Assembly (NCBI RefSeq): GCF_038025025.1
Contig: NW_027117343.1
Coordinates: 186,001 to 250,000 of the forward strand
DNA: 64,000 nt
Direction: 5' to 3'
Origin: Phyllosticta citribraziliensis
Lineage: Eukaryota
The position numbers and the translations under genes are program-made. How positions within the stretch are numbered: the first letter of the stretch is position 1; every line of letters starts with the position of its first letter. Below, one piece after another: positions 2,394 through 57,215 of this stretch. Under the pieces are notes generated by a model, which worked only from the letters and a program-made list of their open reading frames with translations, was not told the origin of the DNA and made no database searches.

Positions 2394-3313
2394 TCATCTC
2401 TGCCTATGAATTTTGTCCCAATGTTCCCTATAGCTACTCCTATTGCAGATATCGCAGGTGAAGCTTGTGTCTTTCTGGTATGTCGTCACGTCCATGATTT
2501 TGAGGCTTTGGCAGTAGAAAATGGGGCACCAAAGTGTCACCACAGACGCAGATCCAGCGGCTGCGGGCGCTTTATGTTGCGCGTGCATGGCATGGACCAC
2601 GTCTTTGGCGAACGCGGGAACATCGCCCAGAGTATCGTTGAAAGCCGGGTCATCGACGATGTCATCCATCTTGCGCACCGCCGCGTCCACAATAACGTCG
2701 CGCAGACCGCGGTCCTGTTCAACAGTGCCTTCATAGATGCTCTTCACGGCGACGCGTAGCATGGGCAAGTGAAACATGCCGTCTGCGCCTTCTTTGAAAC
2801 GCGACACAGCGGCGTCCTTCAGGTTCGTTAGCTGGTACATCTCGGCCGCGGCGAATACGTTGATGCTGGCCATGAGCTCTTCATTTGGGTCTGGGCTTTT
2901 GGGGCAGACGCCGTGGTACATGTATTCGAGGATGGAGCGGACGACGGAAGGGCTGATATCTTGCAGTTCAATCGTGTTGGTGCGTGCTTCCTGTGTCGGT
3001 CCGCCGCTGGTCAGTGACTTGAATGAGTGCGGCGGCGCATGGGTGAGGCCGCGTAAGGAGGGAGCACGTGCCTTGAAGCCGTTGATGTCGTCAAAGGCGC
3101 GGGAGAAGTACTCGCTCTGTGTGCACACGACTGCTTTGTGTATGTGGAAGGTCTGATCACCGCAAACGATCTTCGCATCTGAGTAGCGGCCGGACTCGAG
3201 CAATCTGGGCGGGCAAGGTCAGTCAAACCGCCTTGTGGAGGGGCTGCTCCACATTCTGCTTACCCGCTGATAGACTGACGAACATGGCGATCTCCAGGAG
3301 TTGAAGACTCCAT
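2394..3313 (-). CDS. BTB/POZ protein with C-terminal zinc ribbon (locus 2), 3 exons
   Basis: Exon 1 3313-3264 (MESSTPGDRHVRQSISG), GT-AG intron 3263-3205, exon 2 LLESGRYSDAKIVCGDQTFHIHKAVVCTQSEYFSRAF..GFK, GC-AG intron 3071-2991, exon 3 to stop. C-terminus CPIFYC..CDIC..W. Confidence 0.9.
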
Positions 3314-17840: not shown

Positions 17841-18706
17841 ATGGCGCTCTCAAAGGATGGAGATGACTTCCGCAAGTCGATTGGAAAGTATGAGCTCACA
17901 GATCTGCCCGTTCACAGCCTTTGCTAAGCATCCAGGCTTTTTGACACCGGCCTATACTCTGACGCCCAGGTTGTCGTCGGCACAACCATCTTCAACGTGC
18001 ACAAATCTGTCCTTTGTACGCAGAATGCCTACTTCGCTCACGCCTTCGATGTGGCCCATGGATTCAAAGTATGTCCCCTGTAACGCAGCTCCGGCTACCT
18101 GTCTGAGAAGTTGCATGAGCTAATCAGACGAATACACAGGAATCCTACACCAGCGTCATCACCATCGAGGAGCCCGCAAACGTTGAAGTCATCAAAGCAA
18201 TGCTCGAGTATATTTACAAGGGAGATTACACGGTTGCCAGCGATACCGAGGCCCAGCTTGTAGTCGACACCGGCGTTTATGCGGCGGCAGAGATGTTCCG
18301 AGTTGAAGGTCTCAAGCAGCTGGCAGCTGAGCGCATCAGCTCGAATATTGACAAAGTCTTCTCATCCTCTAACCTGGCCATCGTTCTCGATAATGTCTAC
18401 GAGTACACCCCGGAGCACGACCGCCAGGTTCGTGACCTTTTCGCTAAAGCCGCAACAACCAAGATTGAGAGGGAGGGTCTTCTTGGCAGCGCTACCTTCC
18501 GCGAGGCAATTAAGGAGAACGGAAACTTCGCGGCGGACATCGTGCTCGCCATGCACAAGACAGTCAACATTCAGGCCGAGGTCACATGCCGGATCTGCAC
18601 CTCCACGACATTGGTCCCGACGAAGGCCGTGGAGGAGGAGAGGGCTATCCTCTGCGACGGTTGTAACCGCGTCTACGGCTTCCAGTACTGGAACATCAAA
18701 GAGTGA
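17841..18706 (+). CDS. BTB/POZ protein with C-terminal zinc ribbon (locus 3), 3 exons
   Basis: Exon 1 MALSKDGDDFRKSIG(K), intron 17888-17935, exon 2 LFDTGLYSDAQVVVGTTIFNVHKSVLCTQNAYF..GFK, intron, exon 3 ESYTSVITIEEP..MLEYIYKGDY..CRIC..CDGC..W. Confidence 0.9.
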
Positions 18707-19890: not shown

Positions 19891-20645
19891 ATGGGGACCT
19901 CCGCGGATAATCTCTTTCGCAAGAGCATCGGCGAGTACGTATTGCAAGCAGAACCCCCAGCTCTCGAACAAGTCACTGAAGGCGCTCAGGTTGCTCGATT
20001 CGGGTCTCTACGCCGACGTGGAGGTGAAGGTCGGGACTACTACTTTCAAGGCCCACAAGGCCATCCTCTGCACTCAGTGCGACTTCTTTCGTCACGCATT
20101 CGACAAAAGCAATGGCTTCAAGGTACGTCCTTTACAAATCTGCCTCAGGTACCCTCGCTCTCCCCAGAGATCAGCTGCTAACCTGAGACGGTGCCGTGCA
20201 GGAGGCTGAAACCAACGTCATCGCTCTCGGAGAGCCGACCACTCCCGAGGTTACGCGCGCGATGCTTGAGTTCCTGTACCGTGGCAATTATACCAAGACT
20301 CAAGACGCCGAGAGCCAGTTCGTCATCGACGTGGGCGTCTTCATTGCCGGCGAGATGTACATCATCCCTGGCCTGAAGGAAATCGCCTTCACGCGTATCC
20401 AAGAAGTTCTCAACAACGTCGTCTACTATTCAACTTTCCCGACCGGCATCGCAAAAATATACGATTTCACCCCAGAAAACGACCGCAGCCTCCGCAACTT
20501 GCTGGTTGACACTGCCAAGCTCAAGATCGAGACTGGGGGTCTCCTGCAAAACCAAGGCTTCAACGAGGCCTTGGAGACTTGCAGTGGTTTCGGCAAAGAT
20601 CTAGTCCATGCGCTCGGCACTTACACAGTCATCTGGGAAGAGTGA
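19891..20645 (+). CDS. BTB/POZ protein lacking the zinc ribbon (locus 5), 3 exons
   Basis: MGTSADNLFRKSIGE | LLDSGLYADVEVKVGTTTFKAHKAILCTQCDFF..GFK | EAETNVIAL..MLEFLYRGNY..TVIWEE*. Canonical splice sites at the family positions. Confidence 0.85.
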
Positions 20646-25343: not shown

Positions 25344-26061
25344 ATGACAGACTACGCGGATAACGGAGCAATAGGGGCGGGGCCGTTGCAAATACCAGCT
25401 GCCTACGCCGACGTCGAAATCGTCTGTCTAGATACATTGGGAATCAGAGCACACAAATCAGTCATTTAAGACCGCAGCATCTACTTCATGGATCAGTTGG
25501 ATCTTCTGGAGACTAAAAAGGAGTATGAGGTGCGTCACCTGCCAAAATCCAAAGCTTCAGGCCCGCTGGTACTAATGGTAGAAGCGAACGCATGTCCTGA
25601 ACGAGCCTTTGGTCACCGAACTTCACACCTTGTACAGGGACTCTGTTGTCGTCCGCGCAGTCGTTGAGCACATGTACTTTATGGATTATAACGAGCCAAA
25701 ATACGCCAAATGGCACGAGATGATGCTGTTCCAAGTTGGGGTATTCGACGCAGCGTTCTTCCTGGATGTTCCCTCCACTCAGGAATTGGCGAGCAGCCGG
25801 TTTGAAGCACTCGTTCGAAAACACTGGAAAGACCCGGGCTTTGGGGACGTCGTCGGGCGTATGGCGTACAGCTTCCAGTACATTCAACCGCTCCGCGCCG
25901 TTTGCTTTCAGGTCATGCGCGACAACGGTTGGAGCTTGCTGGAAGATGCTGGATTCTGTGAGGAGCTGAGAATGTTTCTGGGCAAGTGGGGTGGAGATCG
26001 TCTGATTGGGCAGCTGAAAGATGTGCGCTTGCAAATGGAGGGACAACCAAAAGACAACTGA
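25344..26061 (+). pseudogene. Divergent BTB/POZ gene with one premature stop (locus 7)
   Basis: ATG 25344 MTDY..YADVEIVCLDTLGIRAHKSVI*DRSIYF (TAA at 25467-25469), then GTGCGT intron, then ELHTLYRDSVVVRAVVEHMYFMDY..LFQVGVFDAAFFLDVPSTQELASSRF. Confidence 0.75.
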
Positions 26062-26582: not shown

Positions 26583-27461
26583 ATGCCGGCCTCAGAAGGT
26601 GACCACCGCCTTCGCAAGTCCATCGCCAGGTGAGTCTCGCAACCAGCTAGCTTCCACTTCAAGGTATCGAGTTGACCCGCCTCAGCCTACTGGACTCTGG
26701 CCGTTTCGCAGATGCGAAGATCGAGTGCGACGGCCAGACATTCCACGTCCATAAGTCCGTCATCTGCACTCAGAGCGAGTACTTTTCCCGCGCGTTTGAT
26801 GAGAAAAACGGCTTCAAGGTAAGTTTTACTGCCTGTGTCGCCCCATTTTGTGCTTCCTGTACTCACTGATGACGCGTCGCAGGAGGCAAACACCAGCACC
26901 ATTCAGCTCCAAGAGATCGAAGCTTCCACCGTCCGCGCAATCATCGAATTCATGTACCATGGCGACTACAAAACTACTGCCGAGGACAACGATCTGCTGC
27001 TGAGCATCGACGTCTACGCCGCCGCTGAGATGTACCAGGTTGGAGGCTTGAAGGAAGCTGCTACGCGTCATTTCAAGGAAGTAGCTCCCAGCATGTTCGA
27101 TATCCCTACTTTCCCTGATGCCATTCATGCGATTTACCAGAGTACCATGGAGGAAGATCGTGGTCTACGCGACATCCTTGTCGATACAGCTGTTCCTCAG
27201 ATTCACGACCTTGTCAAAGCAACGAAATTCAATAATACCCTCGTCCAAAATGGAGAGTTCGGAAAGGATCTCGTTCACGCCATGAACATGAAGTTTGAGG
27301 ATGACGTCTTGGTGACGATCACTTGCCCTGGCCTTGGTTACCCGGGCTGCCTAGGCCAAGAGAATGTCAAAGGGGCGTTGCTTAGATCTGGAAAGCCGCT
27401 CCTCTGTAATTACTGCGGAAACGCTGCGCCATATTCCAGATGGTTCCGGGTCAACCACTGA
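26583..27461 (+). CDS. BTB/POZ protein with C-terminal zinc ribbon (locus 8), 3 exons
   Basis: MPASEGDHRLRKSIAS | LLDSGRFADAKIECDGQTFHVHKSVICTQSEYFSRAF..GFK | EANTSTIQL..CPGLGYPGC..CNYC..W. Closest to locus 2. Confidence 0.9.
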
Positions 27462-28351
27462 ATGATGTGTCCAGGACTCACGAGTCGCGAATCACAGAGC
27501 AGTCCGGGGTCAAGATGGTATGTGGGCACTGGAAACAGGAGCGGAAAGGAAGCACAACGACAAATGGATGGCTGTCAATGTTGGCGCAGGACTGACACCA
27601 ACTCCATGGATAGACTGGGTAGTGGGTACATGGCCCAAGTCAAAACAGGTACACATTGAGCATCTCCCAGAAGAGCTTCAGAACACTCCCGCGCGAGCAT
27701 ATCAAACTAGCAAGAAAGTTTTCCTTGCACGAGGCTTGAAGCAATGTCGCACTCCTGCATTCTCCGCGAGTCGATTTTCAACACTCCACAAGTCCTTCAG
27801 AAGCTAGACTGCTAACTTTCTTTTCCATTGACTCATCGCACCCACGTCTCCGCTCAATGCGCTCGACATCCGCTCACGGAATTGGAGCCCGCCCGTATTG
27901 TTCCGTGCCTGGGTTTGTGCATCAAGCTTTAACGGGAATGCCGTTGTGTCTAGGAAGCCCCTGCAAGCACGGCGGGAGGAAGCGAAACATGGCCGCATGC
28001 GCAGCTTTCTTGTCGTCAGCCTTTCTGCATATTCAAACCGCTTGTCTCTTATCATGCTTTTGAATGCGGCACAAGGTTTGCTTCCTCTTTCCGCACCTCT
28101 GATGGCTCTGCGGATTGAGTTATTTTTCGCGCAAGCTCGTTGACCGGAGTCGTTCATTGGGAAGTCGAAACCTTTTCAGGGATTGCCTCCATGCGCGGAT
28201 CCTGGTCGATTTGATCGACTTGGAAGCTGCCCAGCTAGAATCTCCAGTGCATGGAACCGCTTCTCGTCCTGATGCCAGCCAAAAAAGCAGCGAGGGGACG
28301 GACAGGCTGGCTCTCCACGCCAATCCACTTCTTGCGTCTTTCCACGGCAGG

Positions 28352-29239
28352 ATGTCCACGATGGACCACGATTCGAAAGCAGAGGAACCAATCCAGGCCC
28401 CTTTTCTCAGGTCAGCTGCGCCGAGACATGGTTTCATGAAGACCTTCCTTTCCTGCTGACGAGCTCCAGCCTCTTGGAATCAGGCCAGTTTTCCGACCTC
28501 AAAATACGATGCAAGGAAGACGAGTACAACGTACACAAGGCGATCGTTTGTCCACAGAGCGACTTTTTCGGCACGGCTCTGAATTCCGTAGGTGGATTCA
28601 AGGTTTGCAATCAGTGTCTTGCGTCGAGTATTCTCCTAACAGAAGACGAAGGAGTCGAAGACAAACGTCATCGAACTACACGAGGCGGATCCTGCCGTGG
28701 TGCGAGCCATCGTTCAATTCCTTTACCGGAGTGACTATCAGATGGATCCCGAATCCGATGAGAACCGTACGGTTTTCCATGTCAGCATGTACAGTGCGGC
28801 GGAAATGTACCAAATCGAAGGCCTGAAAAGCAAAGCCTTACGTCACTTCGAGTCCCGATTCTCAAAGTTTCCGGATACATCTGAGCCATTCGCCAAGATT
28901 GTTGAAATGGTCTACAGCTCTACTGTGGACCATGATCGAAGTCTCCGGGATCATGTCGCAAGACATGTGGCCCAGAGCTTTGATGAATTTCGCAAGAGCT
29001 CGGAGCTCTCTACGATTGCAGAAGATACTCCAGGTTTCGCGAGAGATCTATCCTATGCTTTGCACGATAATTATCTACAGCAGTTGAAAGTACTTGATAA
29101 GCTTGAAGGCTTGGAGATGACATGTCCGCACTGTAAAAGGAGCCAGTTCATGCCTATTCGGGATCTTTTGAACAACACTATGGAGTGGTGCGGGTCATGC
29201 CACAAGTATAAGTATGCGCAGGCTTGGACCCGTTACTAA
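28352..29239 (+). CDS. BTB/POZ protein with C-terminal zinc ribbon (locus 9), 3 exons
   Basis: MSTMDHDSKAEEPIQAPFLS | LLESGQFSDLKIRCKEDEYNVHKAIVCPQSDFF..GFK | ESKTNVIELHEADPAVVRAIVQFLY..CPHC..CGSC..W. The start could instead be 28361. Confidence 0.9.
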
Positions 29240-36584: not shown

Positions 36585-38317
36585 CTCTCTTGCTAGGTTC
36601 GTCAGGGCAAGGAACTCTTTGTGGCCATGCTGACCTTTTCAAGCGTACTGGAGTCTGGAGAGTACTCCGATCTTGAAATTCGCTGCAGTGACGACAAGTA
36701 CAAGGTCCACAAGGCCATTGTCTGCTCACAAAGCGAGTTCTTCCGCCTAGCGATCAAGCCTGAAACCGGCTTCAAGGTTGGTTACATCCCCACAACCGCC
36801 AAGCTCAATAAATCTAACAATGATTCCGCGCAGGAGGCCACTTCCAACGTCATCACCTTGCATGAGACAGATCCTGCCGTCGTTCGAGCCGTCATCCAGT
36901 ACTTGTACAGCGGCAGCTACGAATCAGCCGTCGATATTGAAGGCGCATTCGAAGTGCTGATGCGTCACGCCCATACGTACGCAGCCGGCGAAATGTATCA
37001 AATCCCTGGCCTTAAACGCGCCGTTTGCAAGAAGGTCGAACAGCTTTTTCCTCGCGTCCTGAGAGCGAAGAGCCTTGCCATCGACCAATTCTCAGGATTC
37101 ATCAGCGCGGTTTACGGCACCACAGTTGATACCGACATAGACCTCCGCGAGGTTGTTTTCAATCACATAGCTTACAACATGAAGCAGGTCTTTGGACCAG
37201 GCTTTACCAAAGCTGTGGAAGAGAACCCAAGGTTCGGAGTCGACATGGTTTGGCTGCTGTTTTATGATAGACGGCCGGAGATTCGCGCACTCGAAGACAA
37301 CCTGCCGACTATCAGCTATCGTTGTACGGCTTGCGCCGACGTGAATGACGTGGAATATGGAAAGGTCCTGCAGGATGGCGAATTGCGATGCAGTACCTGC
37401 GACGCCCCACGAGATATGCTTGTCTGGCGTCCCATCTGCCTCTAATAGAAGGCCTTCCAAAACGCAATCCTTCAAGGCTTGCTCCGCAAAAGGACTGGAA
37501 CCTACGATGTCAGTAGAAGTGATTCAGGTTCGACACCATTTCTCCAGAAAGTACTGGCTTTGACCATGTACACCCAAGTACAGTGCTTACAGATTTGTCA
37601 CAGACCTCATTACCGGACGTGGATGTTTCAACTTGCAGTTCAGCAACGCTGCTGGCTAAACTGTTGTGATGGCCGGCCAACTCAGGACAAGGGCTGTGCA
37701 TCGGGCAGGGTTCAGCACGGAAGGACGGGAGATGTCCAGAAACACATCGCAAGGGAACAGTTGGATGGCTCCCAAAAAGGAGTGAAACTTGCATTCAAGA
37801 GAGCTAGATATCATGAAGAAACAGTGAAGACTTGGGCGCAGATCATGCAGTGGTGATATGACTTGACCAGCGAAGACCAGGCTGTTTGGCCGCAATTCTC
37901 ATTCCGACACAACGCCGCTTCGTCGACTGTGGTCCACCTACATGACGCCCTTCGTTTCTGAGGCGCAAGAAACCGCCCCAAGCTTTTGGTAGTAGGATTC
38001 GAGGCTTTTGAGCACTCTGGTTTTCGAAGATCGCCACCCTGCCTACAATGTCCTTGTGAAAAAGCCAAACAACCCAGTACCTCGGCTGATCTGTTGATAA
38101 GACAAGGAGAATCTGCGCTTTTCGTCGAGTCGGACTTTCCTTGCACGTCTCGTAAAGCACGCGACATCGTGCCTGCATCCCTTCCTGACTCCAGAACGAG
38201 CCACCTCAGTCTTCATTGACAGCCAAGGCCCGCGTTTTATTCAACAGTCACCACAAAGAATCTATCAGCTTACCCATTGAAGCCACGGCAACATTCATTT
38301 AGCATCTCAGACCAGCC

Positions 38318-39119
38318 ATGACGCCTCCACCACTTGATCTCGTAATCGCCGCGCAGCAAAAGTTCCGCCGGTGAGCAGCGCCCCCACCGCATCCTCCACC
38401 CGCAGCTGACCAGAGCCAGTCTTTTGAGTCAGGGAATTGGTATGAATCTCGAGCTGAGGGTCGGGACTGGGAGGGCCACCGAGAGCGTGAAAATCCACAA
38501 GGAGCTTCTATTTCTGCAATGTCCCATCTTCAAATCGATCCTCCAATGGCGGAAAGAAAGCAACGTGCGCGCCAGTCTTTCGCGCTCGCCGCAACCGTGT
38601 CAGGGCTACTGCTGATCGAGACTGCAGAGAGATACCAAACTGCTCCACTTCGTCGAAGATCACCCGCTCATCATCAAAGCCCTGGTCAGCTATCTCTACG
38701 AAGGGAGGTACGACCCGCCGGCGCCAGACGCGACAGACTCGCCCCTCCTCTTCCACCTGGACCTCTCCGATGCGGCGGAGTTGTGGGGCTTGATCCGGCT
38801 CAAGTGCGTCGCTGATGAGTGCTTCATGAAAATACTCTTGGATGGCCCGAATGATTTTGGGTCCCTCAATGCCAAACTCTACGCGGCGCACATTTCGGCG
38901 AGGGAAAACCACGATCTCTATCGCCGAGTGGGGAAATGGATGGGTAACGAGCAGGTCAAGGAACTTGTGGACAACAAGGATTTCAGAGGGTTGCGCGAGA
39001 GAATGTGGGCAAATCTTGCTGTGCCAGTGCGCAAGGCGCTGCAGCAGGAAAGAGTCATTGTCTACCGGAGCTGTTTTTCCGTCAAAGCGAGTAGGCGAAC
39101 AGGCGGTCACTATTACTGA
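38318..39119 (+). CDS. Divergent BTB/POZ protein without zinc ribbon (locus 12), 3 exons
   Basis: MTPPPLDLVIAAQQKFRR | LLSQGIGMNLELRVG..VKIHKELLFLQCPIF..ESN | RDTKLLHFVEDHPLIIKALVSYLYEGRY..LLFHLDLSDAAELWGLIRLK. Introns lie at family-equivalent positions. Confidence 0.8.
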
Positions 39120-39430
39120 AAATCAATCGTTAGCGCAATCAAGAAAATCTGTGGATGGAAGGACTTTTGATTCTCTGCCTCCCTGATGTCTTTGCTACAG
39201 AGAATCCGGACCTCATTGTTATCCACGCGCCCGGTATACCCAGACGCCATACCCACAATAGAACCACGGAGAAAGCAAGACAGAAGCGATGAACAGGGCA
39301 GGTGCCAGCACCACCTCCTCAAACACCCATGTCCAAAGAAACAACAAATTTGGAGTTTCGCTTGCGGTAGTGACAGTCCGGTGCATCGTCGCCTTTTCAA
39401 GATGCAGGTCGAGGGAGCAGCATATTCGTC

Positions 39431-41737
39431 TTAGCAAGGGACCTCTGTGGTAACGTTGACAGCTTTAGCTTTGCTCTTCTTCTTCTTGCTAGAAGACTTG
39501 CCTTTCTGATTGCCTGACGGCATAGGGACGCTTTGGCTGCCCTTTCCAAAGAGCAACTCGTAAGCTTCCTTCTGAGATTGAGTGGATGACACGGAGTTGC
39601 TCCTCTTGCTCTTTCCCGAGGGCTTGTCGCCAGAGGACTGGCCCTGCAAGCAGCTGGGCAGCGCAGGTGTACTTTCAGGGCCTGTTGCGGGCCGAGGTGT
39701 GCCAGAGAATAGGCCAGTCGTGCGGTTGGGTGCTGCGATGGTGCCTCCAAAGCTAGATCCGAGGACCAAGCCAGAAGTTGATTGACCCTGTGGGTTGGTT
39801 GATGCCGTGGGGTCACTCCCAAAGGGCACCCCGAAGGGCGAAGAAGATTGGCCTTGGGTGCTGGTCGACGCCTCGGGTGCACTTCCAAACCTCGTTCCGA
39901 AGAGTGGTTTGGAAGAAGATTGGGGTTGCGTGCTGGTTGATGCCGTAGGGTCACTTCCAAAGGGCACCCCGAAGGGCGAAGAAGATCGGCCTTGGGTGCT
40001 GGTCGACGCCTTGGGTGCACTTCCAAATCTCGTTCCGAAGAGTGGTTTGGAAGAAGATTGGGCTTGCGTGCTGGTCGACGTCGTGGGGGCACTTCCAATT
40101 CCCGCTCCGAAGAGCGACTTGGAGGAAGATTGGCCTTGCGTGCCGGTCGATGCCGTGGGGGCATTTCCAAATCTCGTTCCGAAGAGCGGTTTGGGAGAGG
40201 ATTGGCTCTGCGTGTTGGTCAATGTCGTGGGGGCGCTTCCAAAACTCGCTCCGAAAGGCGCTTCGGAGGGAAATTGGACCTGTGAATTGGTGGGTGCCGT
40301 GACACAACTTGGGAGCCCGATTCCAAAGAGCATTGATCCCGACCGAGAAGAATAATCGGACAACCTGATCTCTTCTCGAGAGAATCCTTGATAGCTAGTT
40401 TGGAACTCAATGTCCTCGAAATGAGACATGACATCTTTCCCAAACGTGTCCTTTTCTTTCTCAGTGTGCGGTATGAAGTTAAAATCCCGACTGAATGCGC
40501 CAAGTTTGCTCCTTGGAGCGAAAGTCAACCCAGGTACGTTGACGTGTCCAAGCACTGATATGGACTTTGGAGCGGTTGCAGGCTGCGAGACAGCAGTGGG
40601 GTTCGGGTTGGTCATTGGAAGGCTACCGATGGAAGGTGGGTGACTCTGTGAAGGCCTAGGAGCATGAGAAGTAGTCGTGGCCGCCATTTTTCCAGTGCTG
40701 TCATGTGTGCTTTGGATGGGCGGCGGTGCCGGAAAAGTTGAATTCGAAGCGCTTGCGCCGTGGCTATTGAAAATATCGCGCGTGGGTACTTGAGCCTTCC
40801 GTTTTTCTTGGCCACCAGATGTTGAAATGCCTTCGCTGACTTTCCCAATACCGCCTGCGCGTTTTCCTGAGCGGTGGACATCCCTGGTGCATCTACAGCG
40901 GAGGCGCGCGTGTTGGAGTGGGCGGAAGCACCATGACTGGGTCCTTTGATGGCCAAAGGTATAGATACATCCGAGGCGGAGGCCGCGCTCTTGGGCGTAG
41001 TGAGGGCCGTGGAGGGCGGCAGCGTGCTCACCAGCGCCCGAACGAGATCGTTGCCGAAGCACCCAACGGCGTCCATCGCTTCGCTGAATTCTCCTATTTC
41101 CAGCAACTCATGTATTTTCCCCGTGCAGAGCTCGACGATGAGATGACGCAATCCACTATCACTCGCCACGTCCATCTCGTAGATGGCCTTGATCGCAAGG
41201 TCCATGCGCAAGTCTTTGACAGTCGCCGCGTTTTCGAATACAATCTTGGCCCGATCGATCGCTTGGTCTCGGAGGCCCTTGACACCATAGGCCTCTCCAA
41301 TGGCACAGACCTTGATGTGGAAGAGGAAGAGGGCTCCTTTGTCGTTGTCGCGGGGAACGTCGTATTCGAATCGGTAGAGGTACTCCAGGAGAGCCCTCAC
41401 AGCGGCGGGTTCGTCCTTGTCGAGTCTAATCCTGTTAGAATACGGATCCTGCGTAATACGTTAGGCGCGACAGAAATGCTTCACGTGGACCGGTGGTACC
41501 GAGAAGTTGTTGCGAGGATCGACAGCGCTCTTAAAGAATGCGCTCTGCGAGCACAAGACCATCTTGTGCACATTGTAAAAGCTCCCGTCACTGCAGTGGA
41601 GTTGAAGATCTGCATACAGCCCTGACTCTAGCATCCTTTTGAAGTCAGCGAGACAGATCTGGCAGATGGCGTGCAAGGAATGGGGCTTACTCTCTGAGGC
41701 CAGCTTTGAGCGGGCCAAGCGCCGTGTCCTCTGCCAT
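39431..41737 (-). CDS. BTB/POZ protein fused to a Nup98-like GLEBS motif and FG repeats (locus 13)
   Basis: MAEDTALGPLKAGLRE | MLESGLYADLQLHCSDGSFYNVHKMVLCSQSAFF | ..VRALLEYLYRFEY... A frame change near 40840-40764 is repaired by a candidate 77-nt GTCAGC..AATAG intron. Then FIPHTEKEK..SHFEDIEFQTSYQGFSREEIRLSDY, LFG/PFG/RFG repeats and a basic tail KKKKSKAK. Confidence 0.7.
39780..40300 (-). repeat. Coding tandem repeat (66/72-bp units, 138-bp higher-order duplication) encoding FG repeats
   Basis: GATGCCGTRGGGTCACTYCCAAAGGGCACC recurs at 39801 and 39939. Units encode STQxQSSSKPLFGTRFGSAP..AST and STQGxSSSPFGVPFGSDPTAST. Confidence 0.9.
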
Positions 41738-42594: not shown

Positions 42595-44394
42595 TTAATC
42601 AGTCATGAAATCCTTCAGAAATTCGTTGCGAGCGATCCAACTGCGATTCCTTTTGCCATAAATCCAAAGAGGGATCGTTAGGAGGCAGACAGCTAGGAAA
42701 CATGACCCTAGGACGTTAAATACCGACAAAACACCCGAAGTTTTTATCCAAGCATTCACGAAGAAGGTTAGTCCGAACGTTAAGAAGTTCCGAGCATTGA
42801 TAGCGACGAATGCTTCCTCTGCGAGGTTGGGGAACGAGTCCAGGATATATCCGAAAACGCATACTCCGGCAAACGCTAGCGTGGCATTGGCGATTCCGTA
42901 TGTCAACACCGGACCAGCCCAGTGTGTTTGATCATGGAAAGTAATTCCGAAGCCATAGAATCCGATGCATCCTATAAAAACCACCACAAGCATGAGCGGA
43001 AGTCGAAACTCGGGCTCGTACACTCCGTGGTTGCGATGCGCCAATTTCAAGCATATCCAGTCGTTCAAGGGGCCGGATATGACTTCCGAGATGAGAACCA
43101 GGATAAATGGAGAAAGACCCGTAAGTCCAACGTGTGAGACGGAGAAGTTGTACGGTGGCTGCACAAACAATACTCCGTTGACGACGGAAAAGACCACAAT
43201 CCAGGTCAAAGTGGTGCCGTAAATGAGGAAGCCCCAGATGACCGCCGGGTAGTAGAAGAACATTACGACCGGTCGGCTGAAGACCTTCCAAACTGGTGCC
43301 CGGGAGTATCTCTGTCCGGTCCAAGGGAGGACAGTGCGCCAGTATGACATCTTGGGCTCGGCTGATCCAGGGAACTCTACGGCCAGCTCCTCCGTGTGCT
43401 CTGGCAGAGCGCCTTTTTTTGTGCCGAGATCCTCGTCGCTGTTGTATTTTTCTTCCCTGGCAATGGCGTTCAAGTTGACACGCGGCCTGTTGTAGGACGT
43501 TTCCGGAACGAAGAAGACGATGCCGATCAAGGATGCTCCGAAGAGGATTCCACACACACCAAAAGTCCAATGCCAACCTAGGTACTCTATGATGTACCCT
43601 GAAATGAAGGACGCGCCGCAGATACCGCAGGTCAGGAACAAATTCCAAACGGCGATTCGAGTTGCGCGCTCGTGGACGAAGTACATGTCTCCGATGGTTG
43701 CTTGCACCAACACCTCATATGGAGCCATGCCTATCGCTATCAGTGAAGCCCTGGAGATTATATCCAGTCAGTAACTCACCTATTCCACCGATGATTCGGC
43801 TTCCGAGGAATGAATTGTATGTTTGAGCTTCGGCGCCCCAGATGGAAACAATCACAAGAAGCACAATGGTCAGCAAGTACATTGGCCTCTTCCCGAAGAG
43901 CTTGGCGAAAGGATTTATCAGAAAGACGCAAAGTCCGAGTGTCAGAATGACCCAAGCCGTGGCTTGCGAGAGCGTGTCGACGGAAACACCCAGCTCTTTC
44001 GAGATCGGCACGAATCCAGGTCCAAGCATTGGGCCATACGCTCCGACCACCGCGGAGGCGAAGCCAACGATGAGGAGGATGGCATCCTTTTTCCAGGTGG
44101 GCCACTTTGCACGCGATCAGTTTAAGGAGCATTCGTGGGCAGACACAATACTTACGTTGAGGGGGTCGTTGGGAGAGTCTGAAGGCTGTGGGACCAACAG
44201 AATGTGCGAGTATTTTCCCTTTCCGTGCTTGAGACGCTCAGCTGGAACATCTTGAAGTTCAGGCGGCAAGTCCCCCTGATCTCTCATCGCCGCTGTCACG
44301 ACCAGTCAGCGCTGCTTTCTCAACTGGCGAGCGGCAACGAACCCGTCCCCGGCACAACCTCCATCTTGTGGTCTTCAAGAATCCCGAAAGGCAT
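42595..44394 (-). CDS. MFS transporter (DHA1/HOL1-like), multi-exon
   Basis: MPFGILEDHKMEVVPGT.., ILLVPQPSDSPNDPLN, FGKRP, IGDMYFVHER, VPETSY and EPEFRL motifs; many hydrophobic helices. Confidence 0.92.
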
Positions 44395-45041: not shown

Positions 45042-46432
45042 TTACAAAGACGCTTTGACTTCCTTGAAATCCCTTCGAATCGAAGCCACTGTCTTCGGGT
45101 ACACTTCGTACGCGTGAGTTACGGCATCATGAGCAAGCAGCCATCCTTCACGAGGCAACTTGATGGCTTCAGGATTAGCCTTGATGGCTTCAAAGTCTGC
45201 CTTGTGCCACTTGTCGCGCGTCGTGAAGCCCGTCTGTTGCGCTGCTCTAACGCGATCATACCGAATGCGCTCATAGGCAAGAAGTGCCTCCTGGACGTTA
45301 CTCTTCCCGCTCAGTTCGAGACAGATGGCGACAGTAACACCGTCCTCCATTGCCTGGCTTGCGCCCTGGATGCTAGTCGGTAGGAATGGATGCGCCTAGG
45401 AATGATCAGCCTCAGGGAAAGTTTGAGAATTAGAAGTGATGTTCTTACCGAGTCTCCCAAGAGCGCGATTCTTCGCCTCGGGGACACCCATTTGGGCAAC
45501 GCGTCGCGGTAAACAAGCTTCCAGTCAACCAGGCGATCAGGAGGGGTTGCTTTCACCAATGCATGAACGACTGGAGACCAGCCATCGAGGGTCTTGATGA
45601 CATCCTCAATCTTCCCCGGTGTCGACCAACTTTCTTCAATGTCCGCCTCATCCTGCAACACTGTTAGCCAGCCATACAAAGAGCTTTCAGCAACACGACT
45701 TACAATGTGAGTGCAAACCCAACTCATCTCCTTGCCACCCTTGGTGGAAGCAGCGAGGAAGTGAATGTCTGGGCCTAGGAACCCAGTGTGGGTGTCGCCG
45801 TTGACCACAAGGGGAGCAGTGAGTGGATTCTTGGCTAGTTCCTCTGAGCTGAACCAGGTTCTCCAAACGGCGTATCCAGACGACTTTGGCTTGTCCTCGT
45901 ATCCGAGAACTGCAAGCCTCGCGGTGGAACGAACGCCATCGGCGGCCAGAACAACGTCCGCAACAAACCGCTCTCCGTTGCAGACTACGCCCGCTTCGCG
46001 ATCAGACTCAAAATATTCTTCCACTTTCATCCCGAGCTTGATCTCGACTCCGACGCTCTTTGCGTGATCCCAGACAATCTTGTGGATCTCCGCTCGGTGC
46101 CCGTTGAACTTCTTTCCATTGTTCTTCTCGAATTCTTTCTCGTCCAACTCCCAGATCTGGTCGAAGAGCAACTCACCGTCCCATTTGTACAGCGTGAGAC
46201 GATCCGTGTTCTGGCAAATTGCGGTTAATTGTTCCTCGACGCCGGGCCAGCGCCTGAAAATGCGGCCTGCATTGTGGCCAAAACTGATGATATCGCCGAG
46301 TGGTTTGAGCTCGCTGAACGCTTCGAGCAGCAGGACTTCGTGGCCGTGTGCGATGCACTCAATGGCTGCCGTAAGTCCAGCAAAACCAGCGCCGATGATG
46401 ATGACTTTGATGCCGGAAGGTTCTGGCGCCAT
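45042..46432 (-). CDS. FAD-dependent monooxygenase (salicylate-hydroxylase/MAK1-like), 3 exons
   Basis: GAGFAG dinucleotide-binding motif, ADGVRS (DG motif) and LLGDS|AHPFLPTSIQGASQAMEDG (GD motif across an intron). Confidence 0.93.
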
Positions 46433-47058
46433 TTCGACCGTGAATTGAAGAAAAAAGATGGAGAGACTTGAACGTCGGAATCAACAAGAGGGCCCCGAGT
46501 ACCTTTTTCTCTGCGCGTCCGCCTTGCTAAGGCTGATGACCTGCAGGCCGAACCCGAACGTGGACTCGAGACGGGATAGCCGATAGTCAATCACCGGCAG
46601 CCGCCGACCTCGATGCTTACCAATGCTGGGATAAGCAGATGGGGGATCTTCAATGCAGTTTGCCTCCTCTCTGTGAGGCTTTTCCCCACAATAGCTAACT
46701 TCATGACGTTGGTTAAAATCTGGGGTAAGTGTGGAGAGGGAAACAGGGGTACCCCACACAGCATCCCTGCTCGTGACGGGAGCGAGCGCTTCGATCTGGG
46801 CATCATCTCGACCCCACATCTTCTTCTGTCGTCGCGCGCGACTCCACCGAATCAGCAAATCAACACTCTCAGTCGGGGCATCATCACCGAAACGTTTAGA
46901 GAGTTGTTCCAAGCACGAACCACAGAGCCCGTTGGGTCTCGAAACAGGATCCCGGCGCTTGTCGGAGCACCACCACCATCCAGCTGTCCAATAGAGTCTT
47001 TGCCTCTTCAAACATCTATCGCCGTCCAGCCGTCTTCTTTGTGGCTTACGCTGCTCCA

Positions 47059-48656
47059 ATGGCTGTTGCGGAATTTCTCACGCTCGAATTTTCGTATCTC
47101 GCGTTTTCTATCCTCGTACTCCTGGCCGTCCCTTTGCTGACAGTGCTTCATGACTTTCTCATCTGGCAACGCATGCCCCCGGGGCCACTCCCACTCCCCT
47201 TCATAGGGAACAAGCACCAAATCCGGCGGTCGAAACCATGGCTGCAGTTCGAGGAGTGGTCGCACAAGTACGGGCCCATCTTCACGGTTTGGATCGGCCG
47301 CCAACCGCAACTGGTCGTCAGCGACGCCGAGATTGCCTCTGAGCTGTTGGAAAAGCGCAGCTCCATATTTTCAAATCGACCGCGGATGGTGGTGCTCTCC
47401 GAGATATTCTGGAATGGCGCTGGCATTGTCACGTCGCCGTACAGCAAGGAGTTGGTCCTGCGGCGCAGATTGCTACATCAGGCAATGACAGCGAAAGCGC
47501 TGGAATCGTACAAATCGGCGCAGACGGCGGAGGCGAGCCGGATGTGTGGAAACTTGCTGCGCCAGCCCGACGACTGGGAGAGGCTGTTTGAGTGGTTTGT
47601 TGGCAGCACCACTTTCTCCATCGCGTATGGACATCGCGTCGACAGTCTGGATGCCCGCGTCGCAACGTGCCGGGCAAATACCTCGTCGAGACTCTTCCCA
47701 TCTTGAAGCACCTGCCGGATGCGCTCGCCCCGTGGAAGCGAGAGATCAAAGAGAACGGCAAACGCTTCGTTGGTTTCGCCATTCGGCGGCTGGAGACCGT
47801 GGAGAAAGAGCTGGCCCAGGACAAACAATCAGGATCTATTCCGCCCAGCTTGACCAAACACCTCATCGAACGCCGCGAAGCGCAGCCTGACCTTCCTCTC
47901 TCCCGGACCAACTTTGCCTTTATCCCTGCAGCGCTTTTCGGTGGCGGCACAGATACCACGGTCGGCATGCTTTGCACTGTGGTCCTCGCGCTTGTCACGA
48001 ATCCTTCAGTGCAGCGCATCGCGCAAGCCGAGATCGACGCCATGGTGGGCTCTTCGCGCTCCCCGACCTTTGACGATTATCCAAACCTGCCATACACGCG
48101 CGCCCTGATCCACGAAGCGCTGCGCTGGCGGCCCGTTTCCGTCCTCGGCGGCGCACCGCATGCCAGCACTGCACCAAGTTCCTTTGGTCCCTGGCATATC
48201 CCGCGCGGCACGCCCGTCATCGGCAACGTGTGGGCCATCAACAACAACGAGGCGTACTTTCCAGACCCGCAGCGCTTCGACCCGACTCGCTTCCTGCCAG
48301 AGACGATGGCGCTTCGACATTCCGGTGATTCAAAGGCGCGCGCTGAGCTGGGGAAACCACATACTTCGACCGCGCATGGACACTCCGCTTTTGGCTGGGG
48401 CCGTCGCATCTGTCCCGGCTCCGAATTGGCGCTGAATACGCTCTTCATCGGTGTGGCAAAGATGTTGTGGGCTTTTGACGTGTTTCCAAGGGAGGGCCAC
48501 AGCTACGACACTATGGCATACACCGACGGCTTCAACATGAGGCCACGGCGCTTCGAGTGCGACATCGAGGTCCGCAGCGAGAAGCACAGGGAGGTGTTGC
48601 TGGCCGAAGAGCAGGAAGCGTGGGAGGTGTTGACGCAGTTCCCGGCCTTTGACTGA
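47059..48656 (+). pseudogene. Cytochrome P450 with a frameshift near 47660 (pseudogene or assembly error)
   Basis: N-terminal TM helix, PPGPLPLPFIGN, GGTDTT I-helix, EALRWRP, FDPTRF and heme motif FGWGRRICPG. The frame switches between GHRVDSLDARV and NVPGKYLVETLP with no plausible intron. Confidence 0.8.
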
Positions 48657-50833: not shown

Positions 50834-51967
50834 ATGGCGGACGACGACGACAAGCTTGGTCCGCTCAAGACCGGCTTGAGCGAGTAAGTTCCCTCAAACT
50901 TTCCTCCAAGATCTCTGTTGACGATCATCAGCCTACTCGAATCCGGCCTCTTTTCCGACCTCAAGATTTGTTGTCGCGACGGCACTGTCTACAACGTGCA
51001 CAAGAATATCCTTTGCGCTCAGAGTCTGTTCTTCAAGAATGCGCTCAATCCCTCCAGCAATTTCTTGGTAAGTCCACTTGAAGCTCAGTGCTTTCTTGGC
51101 TTCGCTGCTTGTGGTCTTCCAACAACTCACTGCCCTGTTCACTCTTTCAAAAGCTAATGCCCTCCTCTAGGAAGCCCGATCCAACACCATCAAGCTTGAA
51201 AACGACGACCCAGCGGCTGTGAAAGCTCTCGTCGAATACTTCTATCGCTTTAAATACACGACCTTGACGTAAGCGAAGATCAGCTTCTGATCTTCCATGC
51301 ACACGTCTTTGCTATTGGAGAGACATATCGCAAACCAGGTCTTAAAGACCTCGCCATACTTCGCTTTAAAGCCACCTTCATGGACGCCAAGTGCCTGAAA
51401 GACCTGGATTTTCCGAACGCTGTGAAGACGGTTTACAGAACTACCGTGGAAAGCGACAAAGGATTGCGCAATTTGGTCGTCGCTCTCACATATGCCTTCA
51501 TTCGCACATTCACGAAAAAGAAGGCTTTTCTGAGTATGATGGCGGAAGTCGGAGAGTTCAGCAAAGATCTCACCCTGGGAATCATCTCGTTGGGCGATGC
51601 AGATATGAGGTGGCTTTGCAAGCATTGTGAGCGGGAAGTTGAGATGGACCTTCCAATTGCAGCGAAGGACGCCTATTGTCCGTCCTGTGGGAAGGGGTCT
51701 AGGAAGTCCGCTTGGTTTGGCAAGGCCAAAAGCCACTGGACCGGTGTTGCAGAATACGACTGCCCTAATTGCAGAAGTATCGTGTGGATGGACCTGGAAA
51801 CCGATCTCCAGCCATCAGGTGATCCTCCTCAGACTTTTGCGCCTTGCTGCGGCGTTCCTCAAGCCAACGAAAAGTGGCAGCGTTCGAAAATCGAGGTCAA
51901 TTACAGCGACGAAGACGAAGCACCAAGCAGGGAGCCGAGCAGCACTTCGGATGAGGACCAAGTCTGA
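50834..51967 (+). pseudogene. BTB/POZ gene with tandem zinc ribbons and a 1-nt deletion near 51258 (locus 14)
   Basis: MADDDDKLGPLKTGLSD | LLESGLFSDLKICCRDGTVYNVHK.. | EARSNTIKL..YFYRFKYT, then a frameshift before DLDVSEDQLLIFHAHVFAIGETY. C-terminus CKHC..CPSC..W..CPNC..PCC..W plus an acidic tail. Confidence 0.8.
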
Positions 51968-52289: not shown

Positions 52290-53578
52290 ATGGCGATCGA
52301 CAGCGACCAGCCCTCTCTGCTCAAGAGCGGCCTCAGCCAGTAATTTTCCGAAGATAAACTCTCCCTAATATCTCTCTGACCTTCTCTCGGTAGGCTGCTT
52401 GAGTCCGGCTACTTCTCAGACCTTCAGATCTCATGCAATGACGGCACGGTGTACAACGTCCACAAGAGCATCCTGTGTGCTCAAAGTGCATTCTTCATGA
52501 ACGCCCTCAATCCTGACAGCAACTTCAAGGTTAGAGGCGCTTGGTGGACTTTTCTCTCGGGCTTGCTTGAAGACTCTGGGTGTTTCGCTTGCTCGCCAAC
52601 ACGCTTGCTCGCCAACACGCTTGCTCGCCAACACGCTTGCTCGGAGTCTCCATGACCTCTGCCTGCCGACCTTACTCACCTGAATGTCCTGCCTTCCTTC
52701 TTCGTCGCACGCTCTTAGTTCTTTCTCTGCCCCGCCGAAAAACACCTTCCCCCACAGTCACTTGTCACTGCAGACCCAATTCTAACTTCTTATCACAGGA
52801 GGCTCAGACCAACAAGGTCCCGCTGGAACACCATGAGCCGTTTGCAGTCAAGGCTCTTATTGAGTACTTCTATCGATTCGAGTACACCGAGATCGACGCC
52901 CCGATCAACGAAACTCTGCTGTTTCACGTGCACATCTACGCCATTGGCGAGACCTACGACGTAAAAGGCTTGAAGAAGCTGGCCTGCGACCGATTTGAAG
53001 CCATCGTTGCAAACAAATCCTTCAGAGAGCTTGACCTGCCTTCCGCCATCAAGGCCATTTACAACACGACCGTCGAAATCGACAAGGGCTTGCGCGGAAA
53101 GGCCATTGCTATTGCTAGAGCCGACATCAAAGCTGTCATGGAGTCGAAAGAATTCTCAGAGATGATGGATGAATGCGCGCAGTTCAGCAAGGACTTGGCT
53201 CGCTCGTTGGTCGAGGATCCCCTCACTGCGCCTTGGTACAAATGTACAGGCTGTTGTGTTGCTATTCGAATGGAACTTCCAGATGGCACTAAGAGAATCC
53301 ATTGTCCACGCTGCCCTAGGTCCTTCACTAGAGAGGTTTGGGTGGGCTCAATGGCGGCGTCCAATTTGTCGCGTCTGTGCAGGTACAGTTGCCCGCAGTG
53401 CAAAACGATCATTGCAATGGATATCCTCTCCGTTGGATCTATTGGTCCCCAGACTTACTGCCCTTGCTGCGGAATTCCTCGTCAAAACACAAGCTGGCAG
53501 AACAACAAGGTGCTTAGCGAGAGCGAGGGTGACGAGGAGGAACATGACGAAGAGGAGGAAGGCGAAGACGAATACTGA
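52290..53578 (+). CDS. BTB/POZ protein with tandem zinc ribbons and acidic tail (locus 15), 3 exons
   Basis: MAIDSDQPSLLKSGLSQ | LLESGYFSDLQISCNDGTVYNVHKSILCAQSAFF..NFK | ~270-nt intron | EAQTNKVPL..CTGC..CPRC..W..CPQC..CPCC..W..EEEEGEDEY. Confidence 0.9.
52586..52643 (+). repeat. 16-bp tandem repeat x3.6 (CGCTTGCTCGCCAACA) in intron 2 of locus 15
   Basis: Read directly from the sequence. Confidence 0.9.
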
Positions 53579-54752: not shown

Positions 54753-55773
54753 ATGGATGACGGAACAAAGGCTGGTCTTTCCGCTTTTGGCGAGTGAGTA
54801 CCACCTTTTTTGCCCACCAAATCAATCACTGACCCATTGCAAGCCTACTTGATTCCGGCCTTTTCTCCGATCTCGAAGTCCTCACTGGCGATGGAACAAA
54901 GTACAATGTGCACAAGGCGATTCTTTGCGCTCAAAGCTCGTTCTTCCGGAATGCTCTCAGCCTCCAAAGCGGCTTCTTGGTATGTTTTATGTTCCGGACA
55001 ACTGGACCAAAGGTGAAGCTAATTTTAAGCGATAGGAAGCAAGAACCAACGTCATCAGGCTTGAAAAAGATGAACCCGCTGTGGTGAGAGCTCTTCTTGA
55101 GTACTGCTATCGGTTCAACTACGAGCATAATGTCGAGGAACTCAACGACGCGTTCCATTTCCACATATGCGTCTATGCCCTTGGAGAAACCAGCTGCGTG
55201 CAAGGCTTGAAGGACCGAGCCAAGGAGCGGGTTGAATTCTTCGAGTGGGCCCATTACGACTTAGAGCAACTGGACTTTACACTTGCGGTGAAGACCATCT
55301 ACAACACAACGAAGGCCAGCGATAGAGGCCTCCGCGACCTTGCTGTCCGAATGACCCGAAGGTCATTTGATCAGGCCATGGAACTGGACGGATTTCAAGA
55401 AATGATGGGCGAAGTTGGCCAATTCTCAAAGGACCTCTGCCACTCGTTGCAAAAGGATCTCAAAGCATTTGAAGATGCGCCCAGGTACAGCTGTCAGGGT
55501 TGCCGCTCTTACATCCGCATGGAACTTCAACCTGAGAACGACTTGTCAATGTTCTATTGTCCTTACTGCAAGTTCCTCAACTTGGCCTCTGAGTGGGAAC
55601 TTGGCAAGTCAAAATACCCTGGAAAGCTACCAACGTACAAATGCCCCGACTGCAATAAACGAGTTGCAATGGATCTTTGCGCAGGTGGTCGCAAGGCGAA
55701 AACATCGTGCTATCACTGCGCGACTTCTCTCACGAATGAGAAATGGAAGTGCCGTGAGTCAAAGTGCGACTGA
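54753..55773 (+). CDS. BTB/POZ protein with tandem zinc ribbons (locus 16), 3 exons
   Basis: MDDGTKAGLSAFGD | LLDSGLFSDLEVLTGDGTKYNVHKAILCAQSSFF..GFL | EARTNVIRLEKDEPAVVRALLEYCY..CQGC..CPYC..W..CPDC..CYHC..W. Confidence 0.9.
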
Positions 55774-56156: not shown

Positions 56157-57215
56157 CTATGGCTCATAATCCTCCTCTACTAATTCATTCCCTTCCCAAA
56201 CCCGATTCCTCCTTGGAGCTCCGCACAGATAGCAAGTAGTCTCGCTCAATAGACCCCCCGGGCAAAGCTCTAGACGGTTGACCCCCCCACAAACATCACA
56301 GGCGTACTCCTTCAGTGGTGCGTGCAAAGTCGAAGTCACCCTGTAAGCCTGCCACATCTCGCTGTCTTGAATCTCTCCACAAATGGGACAGTAGAATTCA
56401 TCGTCTTCCTCGAGGGGAAAGTCCACAAACATGGTAGCGGTGCACCACCGGCAGGTGTATCGAGGGAGGGACTTGAGCTGGTGGAGCTCGCTCGTGGAGG
56501 AATCCGACAAGTCTCTGAAAAATTGCGTGATATCCTCCAGCTCGTCCTCGAAGCCCTCAGTGTTTCTTGCCTCGTCGATTCGGTCTCTTGTGAGCTGGAC
56601 GACAACGTCGCGTAGGCCCCTGTCGCTGTGGACTGTGGACGCGTAGATTTCCTGGACAAGCCGGGGAAAGTTGATCTCGTCGAAACTCAATGGATGCAAG
56701 GCATCAATGAAGTGTTGTTTCGCTGCATCCTTGAGGCCTGGTACGCGAAACGTTTCCCCGGCAGCATATACGAGTATGTGGAAGAGCAGCTTGCTGTGGT
56801 CGTCATCCATGTCCTCATCGCTGTAATCCAACCTATAGAAATAATTGACAACCGCTTCAATGACGTTCGGGGGCTCGTCTTTAAGTTCGACGACGCCGTT
56901 TCGTAACTCCTACCGCCAAACGTCAGCGCCACCTTTTGCAAAACGCGTTGCTGACCGGAGTGTTTGCGTACTGTGTAGTTTCTGGCTGGATTCAGCATGC
57001 GTTCAAAGTACTCGCTCTGCAAACAGAGTATGATCTTGTGGACCAACCATTCGCTCCCATCGCGATCACGAATCCGAAAGTCAGAGTGAGAACCGTTAGC
57101 TAGGTAGCTTGCAAATTGTTAGCAAAAGACGCTGTTGAAGACGGTCGTTTGGTTGAGTTTACTCGTAGAGATTGCCCTGAGCCTGGAGCACAGGCAGCAC
57201 CGGGCGATTTGCCAT
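56157..57215 (-). CDS. BTB/POZ protein with tandem zinc ribbons (locus 17), 3 exons
   Basis: MANRPVLPVLQAQGNLYD | YLANGSHSDFRIRDRDGSEWLVHKIILCLQSEYF..NYT | ELRNGVVELKDEPPNVIEAVVNYFY..CRWC..CPIC..W..CDVC..CYLC..W. Confidence 0.9.

Follow-up and report, generated by a model that had tools for sequence, protein, structure and literature searches.

A BTB gene of Phyllosticta citribraziliensis followed out of frame by a Nup98-like tail with a GLEBS-type motif and FG repeats

Gle2-binding (GLEBS) motifs are described in the nucleoporins Nup98, Nup116 and Nup145N (Pfam PF21240; PDB 3mmy, 4owr and 7vpg), where the residues RL.DY are typical of the Nup98 type. The GLEBS of Bub1, Mad3 and BubR1 belongs to a related class, being a short Glu-Glu-containing motif that binds Bub3, a WD40 propeller of the Rae1 kind. 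We know of no natural GLEBS-bearing protein beyond the Nup98-type nucleoporins and the Bub1/Mad3 checkpoint proteins. According to an excerpt of PMC3783196, the Glu-Glu pair (E201/E202 in the human protein, E154/E155 in yeast Nup116) makes crucial salt bridges with Rae1/Gle2. The Phe-Gly (FG) domains of Nup98, as summarized in an excerpt of PMC4283134, have one FG per ∼12.5 residues, 13 to 17% F, I, L, V and M (FILVM), spacers of G, T, S, A, N, Q and P, ∼2.5% charged residues, and a median length of ∼549 amino acids. Here, we describe a minus-strand gene at positions 41737 to 39431 of a 64,000-nucleotide stretch of the Phyllosticta citribraziliensis genome (RefSeq assembly GCF_038025025.1, contig NW_027117343.1, positions 186,001 to 250,000; this whole stretch is referred to as the window, and all coordinates are given within it). 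The BTB domain, the FG array and, at the family level, the GLEBS-type motif of this gene are real, and their combination is apparently new. We give about an even chance to the reading that the gene belongs to a local BTB array, is specific to Phyllosticta, and had its Nup98-like tail put out of frame by a 1-nucleotide (nt) indel, the tail now being a recently disabled relic.

The GLEBS-like stretch (FNFIPHTEKEKDTFGKDVMSHFEDIEFQTSYQGFSREEIRLSDY) lies at 40483 to 40352 on the minus strand and runs from FNFIPHTEKEK to the core SREEIRLSDY at 40381 to 40352. Across all six frames of the window, the core pattern S.EE.RL.DY was found a single time, starting at 40381, and none of 200 shuffled windows contained it. 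In an alignment of four Phyllosticta motifs (alignment A1), ten columns never vary (D, I, Y, S, E, E, R, L, D and Y, with the Glu-Glu pair among them), while the flanks diverge. The profile built from these four motifs gave seven matches in the PDB at an E value of ≤10, and all seven are Nup98 GLEBS chains, the best being 3mmy_B (E = 7.8e-4); the conserved S, E, E, R, L, D and Y align with SLEELRLEDY of this chain. Moreover, the Phyllosticta capitalensis protein P0004 scores above the PF21240 cut-off (33.4 bits versus 27) in two stretches, and P0015 of the same species reaches 15.3 bits, under that cut-off of 27. Because P0004 passes the Pfam model and the four-motif profile matches only Nup98 chains, the motif in the window reads as GLEBS at the family level. 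On sequence grounds, the assignment of a Nup98-type GLEBS motif holds for the Phyllosticta family; the copy in the window is a diverged member, placed there through its relatives (transitive homology) and not through any score of its own.

The range of this family was delimited by an exhaustive phmmer comparison of 111 amino acids around the motif with 1.84 billion representative proteins. Four proteins were retrieved at an E value of ≤0.001, all from Phyllosticta and representing two species besides P. citribraziliensis, as follows: the gene's own protein, P0003 from P. citrichinensis (E = 3.8e-10), and P0004 (E = 1.3e-9) and P0005 (E = 2e-5) from P. capitalensis. No nucleoporin was found among the 1.84 billion representatives with this query. 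Two word-index searches returned only the protein itself, among 24 and 487 candidates, respectively; searches of this kind are insensitive, and the second missed the real relatives P0003, P0006 and P0004 although their lengths fall in the range that it covered. The tail exon is 100% identical to P0002, a 688-amino-acid “hypothetical protein” annotated in P. citribraziliensis, and a second strain of this species has a 724-amino-acid model of the same locus (P0016).

Comparison with the P. citrichinensis protein P0006 reveals a change of reading frame within the gene. Residues 41 to 243 of P0006 are 84% identical (171/203) to frame A, the frame of the BTB domain, up to AVLGK ending at 40840, and residues 242 to 360 are 48% identical to frame C from GIGK, which starts at 40852. 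The frame A stretch that follows the shift (40839 to 40612) has no similarity to P0006. Since P. citrichinensis reads straight through, a 1-nt indel is indicated in P. citribraziliensis near 40853 to 40858 (minus strand), the approximate site at which the ancestral reading would pass from frame A to frame C; this position is one that we infer from protein alignments. The frame C sequence from 40852 to 40484 (VSEGISTSGG...NSHGASASNST...VLGHVNVPGL) would then be the ancestral linker ahead of the motif.

The relatives differ considerably in the region of the tail. P0003 and P0006, which are models from two P. citrichinensis strains, disagree past the motif: P0003 stops 18 residues on, and P0006 has an intron inside the motif (SREE|GEF) and reaches the conserved C-terminal end. 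The tail of P. citrichinensis, which has about one FG unit, may be interrupted too. In P. capitalensis, the models P0004, P0007, P0009 and P0010 (447 amino acids, four strains) have two GLEBS motifs and no BTB domain; those of P0004 lie at residues ∼60 to 95 and 270 to 300 (..SLEELRLADY in both). P0015 of this species has the last helix of the BTB-back domain ahead of the motif, with 14 of 16 residues identical. From these comparisons, the gene looks young, fast-changing and possibly decaying. Within the family, P0004 is the best candidate for a binding test.

Transcript contigs were available from two public runs of two studies (X1 and X2, both labelled “RNA?”), and they were taken to derive from spliced RNA because they contain three joints with splice-site ends. 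Exon 1 (41737 to 41691; start codon at 41737 to 41735) encodes MAEDTALGPLKAGLR plus 2 nt and is joined to exon 2 (41635 to 41500) in contigs of both runs by removal of intron 1 (41690 to 41636, 55 nt, GTAAGC..AAAAG). Intron 2 (41499 to 41449, 51 nt, GTACCA..CGCAG) is removed in X1 record 6; X2 has no cover over 40939 to 41505. The third joint, seen in both runs, removes 39501 to 39445 (57 nt, GC..AG, GCAAGT..CACAG) shortly before the end of frame C (39444 to 39431, ..EVPC, stop codon at 39433 to 39431). The contigs match the gene without a differing letter and without an indel. An assembly error behind the frame change was considered and rejected, given that the contigs of both runs are free of indels and that the gene models of both strains need a frame jump.

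The region between the two halves of the gene is covered by unbroken contigs, namely, X1 record 6 (1,717 nt) from 41447 to 40034 and X2 record 10 from 40871 to 40033. Three introns, all inside the frame C linker, have been proposed to join the halves: 40840 to 40764 (77 nt) in the first-pass annotation of this DNA, 40789 to 40656 (134 nt) in P0002, and 40789 to 40764 (26 nt) in P0016. None of them is present in the contigs of either run, though the other three introns are seen there. The first of these is contradicted twice, as contigs of both runs cross it unbroken and the stretch aligns as coding with P0006; by this alignment it is ancestral coding sequence, and an ancestral intron at this place was likewise rejected because the stretch is coding in the sister species. 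The mRNA given by the observed joints contains a 339-amino-acid open reading frame (ORF) in frame A that ends, after ∼75 out-of-frame residues at 40839 to 40612 (SAKAFQHLVAKKNGRLKYPRAIF...VAFQ), with the stop codon at 40614 to 40612. The GLEBS-FG part stands in the −1 frame (frame C) relative to frame A. The in-frame fusion of the two parts that the first-pass annotation had proposed was thus never found in the assembled contigs of the two runs, which can drop rare isoforms; as far as such contigs show, this is the outcome that the first-pass annotation had named as refuting it. Because the public models join the two frames through introns that are unseen in the transcript contigs, the annotated fusion proteins of 688 and 724 amino acids probably do not represent the main product of the locus.

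The N-terminal part of the gene is a BTB domain of the kind found in the surrounding array, as had been proposed from the bare sequence. P0002 matches Pfam BTB (PF00651) over residues 15 to 101 with 45.7 bits against a gathering score of 20.5 (E = 8.6e-12), and no other family was matched by P0002 at an E value of ≤1. The 45-amino-acid piece encoded by exon 2, the N-terminal half of the domain, reaches 28.3 bits by itself (E = 2.2e-6). Frame A from 41448 to 40859 encodes the remainder of the BTB domain, followed by a BACK-like helical extension and the first part of a disordered linker, as judged from the P0006 alignment, AlphaFold2 and Foldseek. The AlphaFold2 model (13-row alignment) is confident over residues 1 to 207, with a predicted local distance difference test (pLDDT) score mostly of 70 to 93 over residues 20 to 207, helices through residue 202, and disorder from residue 215. 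Foldseek comparison of the model with the PDB gave 85 matches at an E value of ≤0.001, the best of which are BTB or BTB-BACK structures of Cul3 adaptors (SPOP 4j8z_A, E = 2e-6; KBTBD4; KBTBD2-CUL3; and vaccinia A55-Cul3). The predicted fold therefore supports an N-terminal part made of a BTB domain with a helical extension of the Cul3-adaptor kind.

Past the motif, frame C encodes an FG region of 199 amino acids with 15 FG (40339 to 39743). The ∼7 S/T/Q-rich FG units noticed at first sight are confirmed as seven units of 22 to 24 amino acids at 40261 to 39770, each with PLFG, SLFG, PFG or RFG. At the DNA level, Tandem Repeats Finder (TRF) reports a period of 72 nt in 5.9 copies with 76% matches, and a higher order of 138 to 144 nt at 84 to 86%. 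The region has 7.5 FG per 100 amino acids (one per 13.3 residues), 17% FILVM and 6.5% charged residues, and S, T, P, A, Q and G are abundant in its spacers. Pfam Nucleoporin FG (PF13634) is not matched by P0001 at an E value of ≤1. Among the repeat units, variation is highest at the third positions of the frame C codons (15 of 22, versus 10 and 10), and the ratio of nonsynonymous to synonymous differences (pN/pS) is 0.50 in frame C versus 1.22 and 1.06 in the other frames. The lowest pN/pS together with this third-position variation indicates that frame C was the one being read as the array diverged. Other frames are also open through the 72-nt repeats, at 39786 to 40355 on the plus strand (189 codons) and at 39397 to 40218 (273 codons) and 39951 to 40394 (147 codons) on the minus strand. 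Since the repeats keep several frames open on both strands, long ORFs alone are no coding evidence here.

A Lys-rich tail, which had also been predicted, is indeed encoded at the end of frame C, but GKSSSKKKKSKAKAVNVTT is spliced out by the 39501 to 39445 joint in both runs. This joint drops 19 codons in frame, a Lys-rich stretch resembling a nuclear localization signal, and retention or removal of the intron would toggle that stretch. In the two NCBI models, as in the one from P. citrichinensis, the stretch at 39445 to 39501 is treated as coding.

In the reading that we favor, an ancestor exchanged the usual zinc-ribbon tail of the array for a disordered one that held FG repeats and a GLEBS motif of the Nup98 type. 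In its intact form, the protein would have dimerized and bound Cul3 through the BTB domain, and the GLEBS hairpin would have used its Glu-Glu pair to dock onto the top of the propeller of Gle2/Rae1. The FG units would have given affinity for transport receptors or for the FG phase of the pore, and the whole may have brought Cul3 to Gle2 or competed with the nucleoporin for Gle2. What the analysis itself shows are the domains, the match to GLEBS at the family level, the frameshift and, in the contigs, an mRNA left unspliced between the two parts; all of the binding is what we infer for the intact form. In P. citribraziliensis, the 1-nt indel near 40853 to 40858 has shifted the tail to the −1 frame, with no intron in the mature mRNA to repair it, so that the main product would be the 339-amino-acid BTB/BACK-like protein with its ∼75 out-of-frame residues. 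The GLEBS-FG part would be left as a relic within a long 3′ region, its function presumably lost.

Two sets of observations weigh against this reading, and the first concerns the motif. The GLEBS identification made in the first-pass annotation stands at the family level, but the window's own motif does not match PF21240, and the 71-amino-acid stretch around it matches no Pfam family at an E value of ≤10. No Nup98 was retrieved from the PDB by single-sequence phmmer at an E value of ≤10 with either the tail or the 71-amino-acid stretch. In addition, a profile of only two motifs (those of the window and P. citrichinensis) places Nup98 first at an E value of 1.5, level with a chance match to HIV integrase, and no true Nup98 or Nup145 protein is present among the results of the sequence searches. 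These results leave room for an alternative in which the GLEBS likeness arose by chance or convergence within a fast-evolving low-complexity tail and Gle2 binding never existed. It would fit, moreover, with the fact that every match is confined to the C-terminal half of the 57-residue GLEBS (profile positions 33 to 62; Pfam positions 16 to 39 of 39); a likeness to F.P..EK in the N-terminal half lies outside these matches. An atlas search gave a best score of 0.85, to an unrelated chordate family, and clusters of Nucleoporin FG, NUP98A and Nup42 scored 0.81 to 0.83, all below the 0.9 under which scores serve as leads only. Against chance stand the two separate motifs with which P0004 exceeds a curated Pfam cut-off, the seven of seven Nup98 chains matched by the four-motif profile, the ten columns that stay invariant in four motifs while the flanks diverge, and the position of the motif among FG repeats at a density near that of Nup98 (13.3 versus 12.5 residues per FG, the latter from the excerpt of PMC4283134). 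We regard chance or convergence as unlikely, although it is the alternative that we weigh most.

Some further searches gave no match. The tail returned nothing from Pfam, PF21240 was not matched by P0001 or P0002 at an E value of ≤1, and a word-index search of the P0004 motif against longer proteins (784 to 2,235 amino acids) left none of 20 candidates at an E value of ≤10 and hence no Nup98 or Nup145, which is weak evidence. CpcJ, Glr2806 and FBXL5 appeared in phmmer as weak PDB matches of the tail or the 71-amino-acid stretch and were set aside as unrelated.

The second set of observations concerns the loss of the tail. Frame C remains open for ∼474 codons past the shift, to 39431; the mRNA still spans frame C to its end, with the last intron still spliced; a −1 slip at 40846 to 40840 would rejoin the BTB and GLEBS-FG parts; and, as contigs drop rare isoforms, a minor spliced or frameshifted product may exist. 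The fusion could accordingly still be made at a low level, by −1 ribosomal frameshifting at G GGA AAG (40846 to 40840) or by a minor splice isoform. The heptamer stands at the frame junction in the phase X XXY YYZ of frame A and is the only in-phase XXXYYYZ heptamer in the 279 frame A codons from 41448 to 40612. It lies 7 to 12 nt past the proposed indel, the product of a slip there would differ from the ancestral one in no more than about 3 residues, and compensatory frameshifting after indels is a known class according to an excerpt of PMC5009743. Against this possibility, the same excerpt describes G_GGA_AAG as highly shift-prone in E. coli, with AAG as a second codon of bacterial type, not the mammalian-like AAC. 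No stimulatory structure was found: the 100 nt downstream of the heptamer fold at −17.6 kcal/mol versus a shuffle mean of −21.5 (z = +1.31), and 188 of 200 shuffles fold at least as well, in a calculation that leaves pseudoknots aside. The letters GGG AAA G probably date from the ancestor (GIGK), in which case their place at the junction may reflect no more than where the indel happened to fall, and a spliced joining form is not seen in the contigs of the two runs. Low-level production of the fusion is second among the alternatives, and we consider it improbable. Its fullest version, a “saved” indel, is very unlikely: a Cul3-type BTB adaptor of Phyllosticta would have captured the Nup98 GLEBS motif and FG repeats and, in P. 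citribraziliensis, outlived a 1-nt deletion because low-level −1 frameshifting at G GGA AAG would yield, from one mRNA, a BTB-only protein plus rare BTB-GLEBS-FG, which would deliver Gle2/Rae1 or pore-bound cargo to ubiquitylation or compete for Gle2.

Third among the alternatives, and of low probability, is translation of the GLEBS-FG part alone from the first AUG of frame C (∼40687, MAATTTSH...), giving a soluble protein that would titrate Gle2. The stand-alone P. capitalensis models P0004, P0007, P0009 and P0010, with two GLEBS motifs and no BTB, would be of this type, and an excerpt of PMC3783196, citing earlier work, states that in HeLa cells the overexpressed GLEBS of Nup98 mislocalizes Rae1 and prevents the export of poly(A)+ RNA. 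The AUG, however, lies ∼1 kb into the mRNA behind an ORF of 339 codons, where contigs cannot reveal a separate transcript start, and P0015, which keeps the BTB-back end ahead of its motif, suggests that the stand-alone models may be truncated gene calls. Least probable of all, and very unlikely, is the model in which a normal intron (40840 to 40764 or an annotated one) joins the halves into a main product of ∼700 amino acids, for although removal of the 77-nt stretch, which is bounded by GT..AG, would restore the frame, and P0002 and P0016 also link both parts, the joint is missing from contigs of both runs that show the other three introns, the three gene models are mutually inconsistent (one with a 26-nt intron), and the supposed intron is coding in the sister species.

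The gene lies within a local array of ∼13 BTB loci in the window, as counted by eye from the ORF list. The other BTB paralogues are dispersed at 2394 to 3218 (−), 18119 to 18706 (+), 20187 to 20645 (+), 25582 to 26061 (+), 26823 to 27461 (+), 28273 to 29239 (+), 36597 to 37445 (+), 38616 to 39119 (+), 51254 to 51967 (+), 52571 to 53578 (+), 55036 to 55773 (+), and 56157 to 56909 (−). Most of them have Cys-rich CxxC zinc-ribbon tails, some of which are doubled, again by eye; four of the paralogues were compared in one alignment and nine in another. The BTB-like ORF at 38616 to 39119 (+) (..HPLIIKALVSYLYEGRYDPP..) is arranged tail-to-tail with the gene, ∼300 nt from its stop codon, and as listed has no zinc-ribbon tail. 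Four neighbors at 13219 to 14784 (−), 42595 to 43767 (−), 45311 to 46480 (−), and 46900 to 48656 (+) were judged by eye from their translations only: two look like membrane transporters, one like a flavin monooxygenase and one like a cytochrome P450.

The paralogues at 51254 to 51967, 52571 to 53578, 55036 to 55773, and 56157 to 56909 share with the gene the BTB and helical domains at 21 to 31% identity, with invariant columns F, H, G, E, G-L, D-x-G-L-R, and F..DL. The difference comes after the F..DL helix, which is followed in the paralogues by zinc-ribbon tails of the form CxxC...CPxC. In the gene, an S/T/P-rich linker leads instead to the GLEBS-like motif and on to the FG units. The proposal that a zinc-ribbon tail was replaced in this gene thus agrees with the array, in which CxxC tails stand at the position where the gene has none.

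Full-text searches of the published literature revealed no natural BTB-GLEBS protein among the papers listed, as judged from the excerpts shown, and the papers whose abstracts bear on both terms concern leukemia fusion proteins. If the motif binds Gle2, the intact gene would encode a natural ubiquitin-ligase adaptor that borrows a nucleoporin docking peptide, and the Phyllosticta family could serve as a ready-made Gle2 competitor.

Among the known systems, the GLEBS of Bub1, Mad3 and BubR1 is the more distant one, as no such chain is among the seven PDB matches at an E value of ≤10 and no Mad3/BUB1 Pfam family was matched. The likeness to the GLEBS of Nup98, Nup116 and Nup145N lies in the C-terminal half, I..Y...S.EE.RL.DY with its Glu-Glu pair, in the setting of the motif among FG repeats, and in a P. 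capitalensis relative that passes the Pfam cut-off. In contrast to those motifs, the copy in the window fails the Pfam model, its N-terminal hairpin half is unaligned, and it stands out of frame behind a BTB gene. The gene also differs from Nup98 nucleoporins in having neither the Nucleoporin2 autoprotease domain nor a Nup96 part, frame C ending at 39431; in agreement with the early observation that no autoprotease domain is present, no such Pfam match was found in P0001, P0002, P0004, P0006 or P0015. The FG region resembles the cohesive FG domains of the Nup98 type in FG density (13.3 versus 12.5 residues), in FILVM content and in the main residues of its spacers. Compared with the values in the excerpt of PMC4283134, it is shorter (199 versus ∼549 amino acids) and more charged (6.5% versus ∼2.5%), and its 72-nt units form a tandem array that is young, with PLFG, SLFG, PFG and RFG in place of GLFG. 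From the Cul3 adaptors SPOP, KBTBD2, KBTBD4 and vaccinia A55, which combine BTB with a 3-box or BACK, the gene is separated by a sequence identity of only 14 to 18% and by the lack of a MATH or Kelch substrate domain; its presumed substrate-binding part would be a linear motif in a disordered tail, out of frame in P. citribraziliensis. What it shares with them is a BTB domain recognized by Pfam and the predicted fold of residues 1 to 207, whose matches include SPOP 4j8z_A (template modeling score of 0.68 on the target), the KBTBD2-CUL3 complex 8h37, and the A55-Cul3 complex 6i2m.

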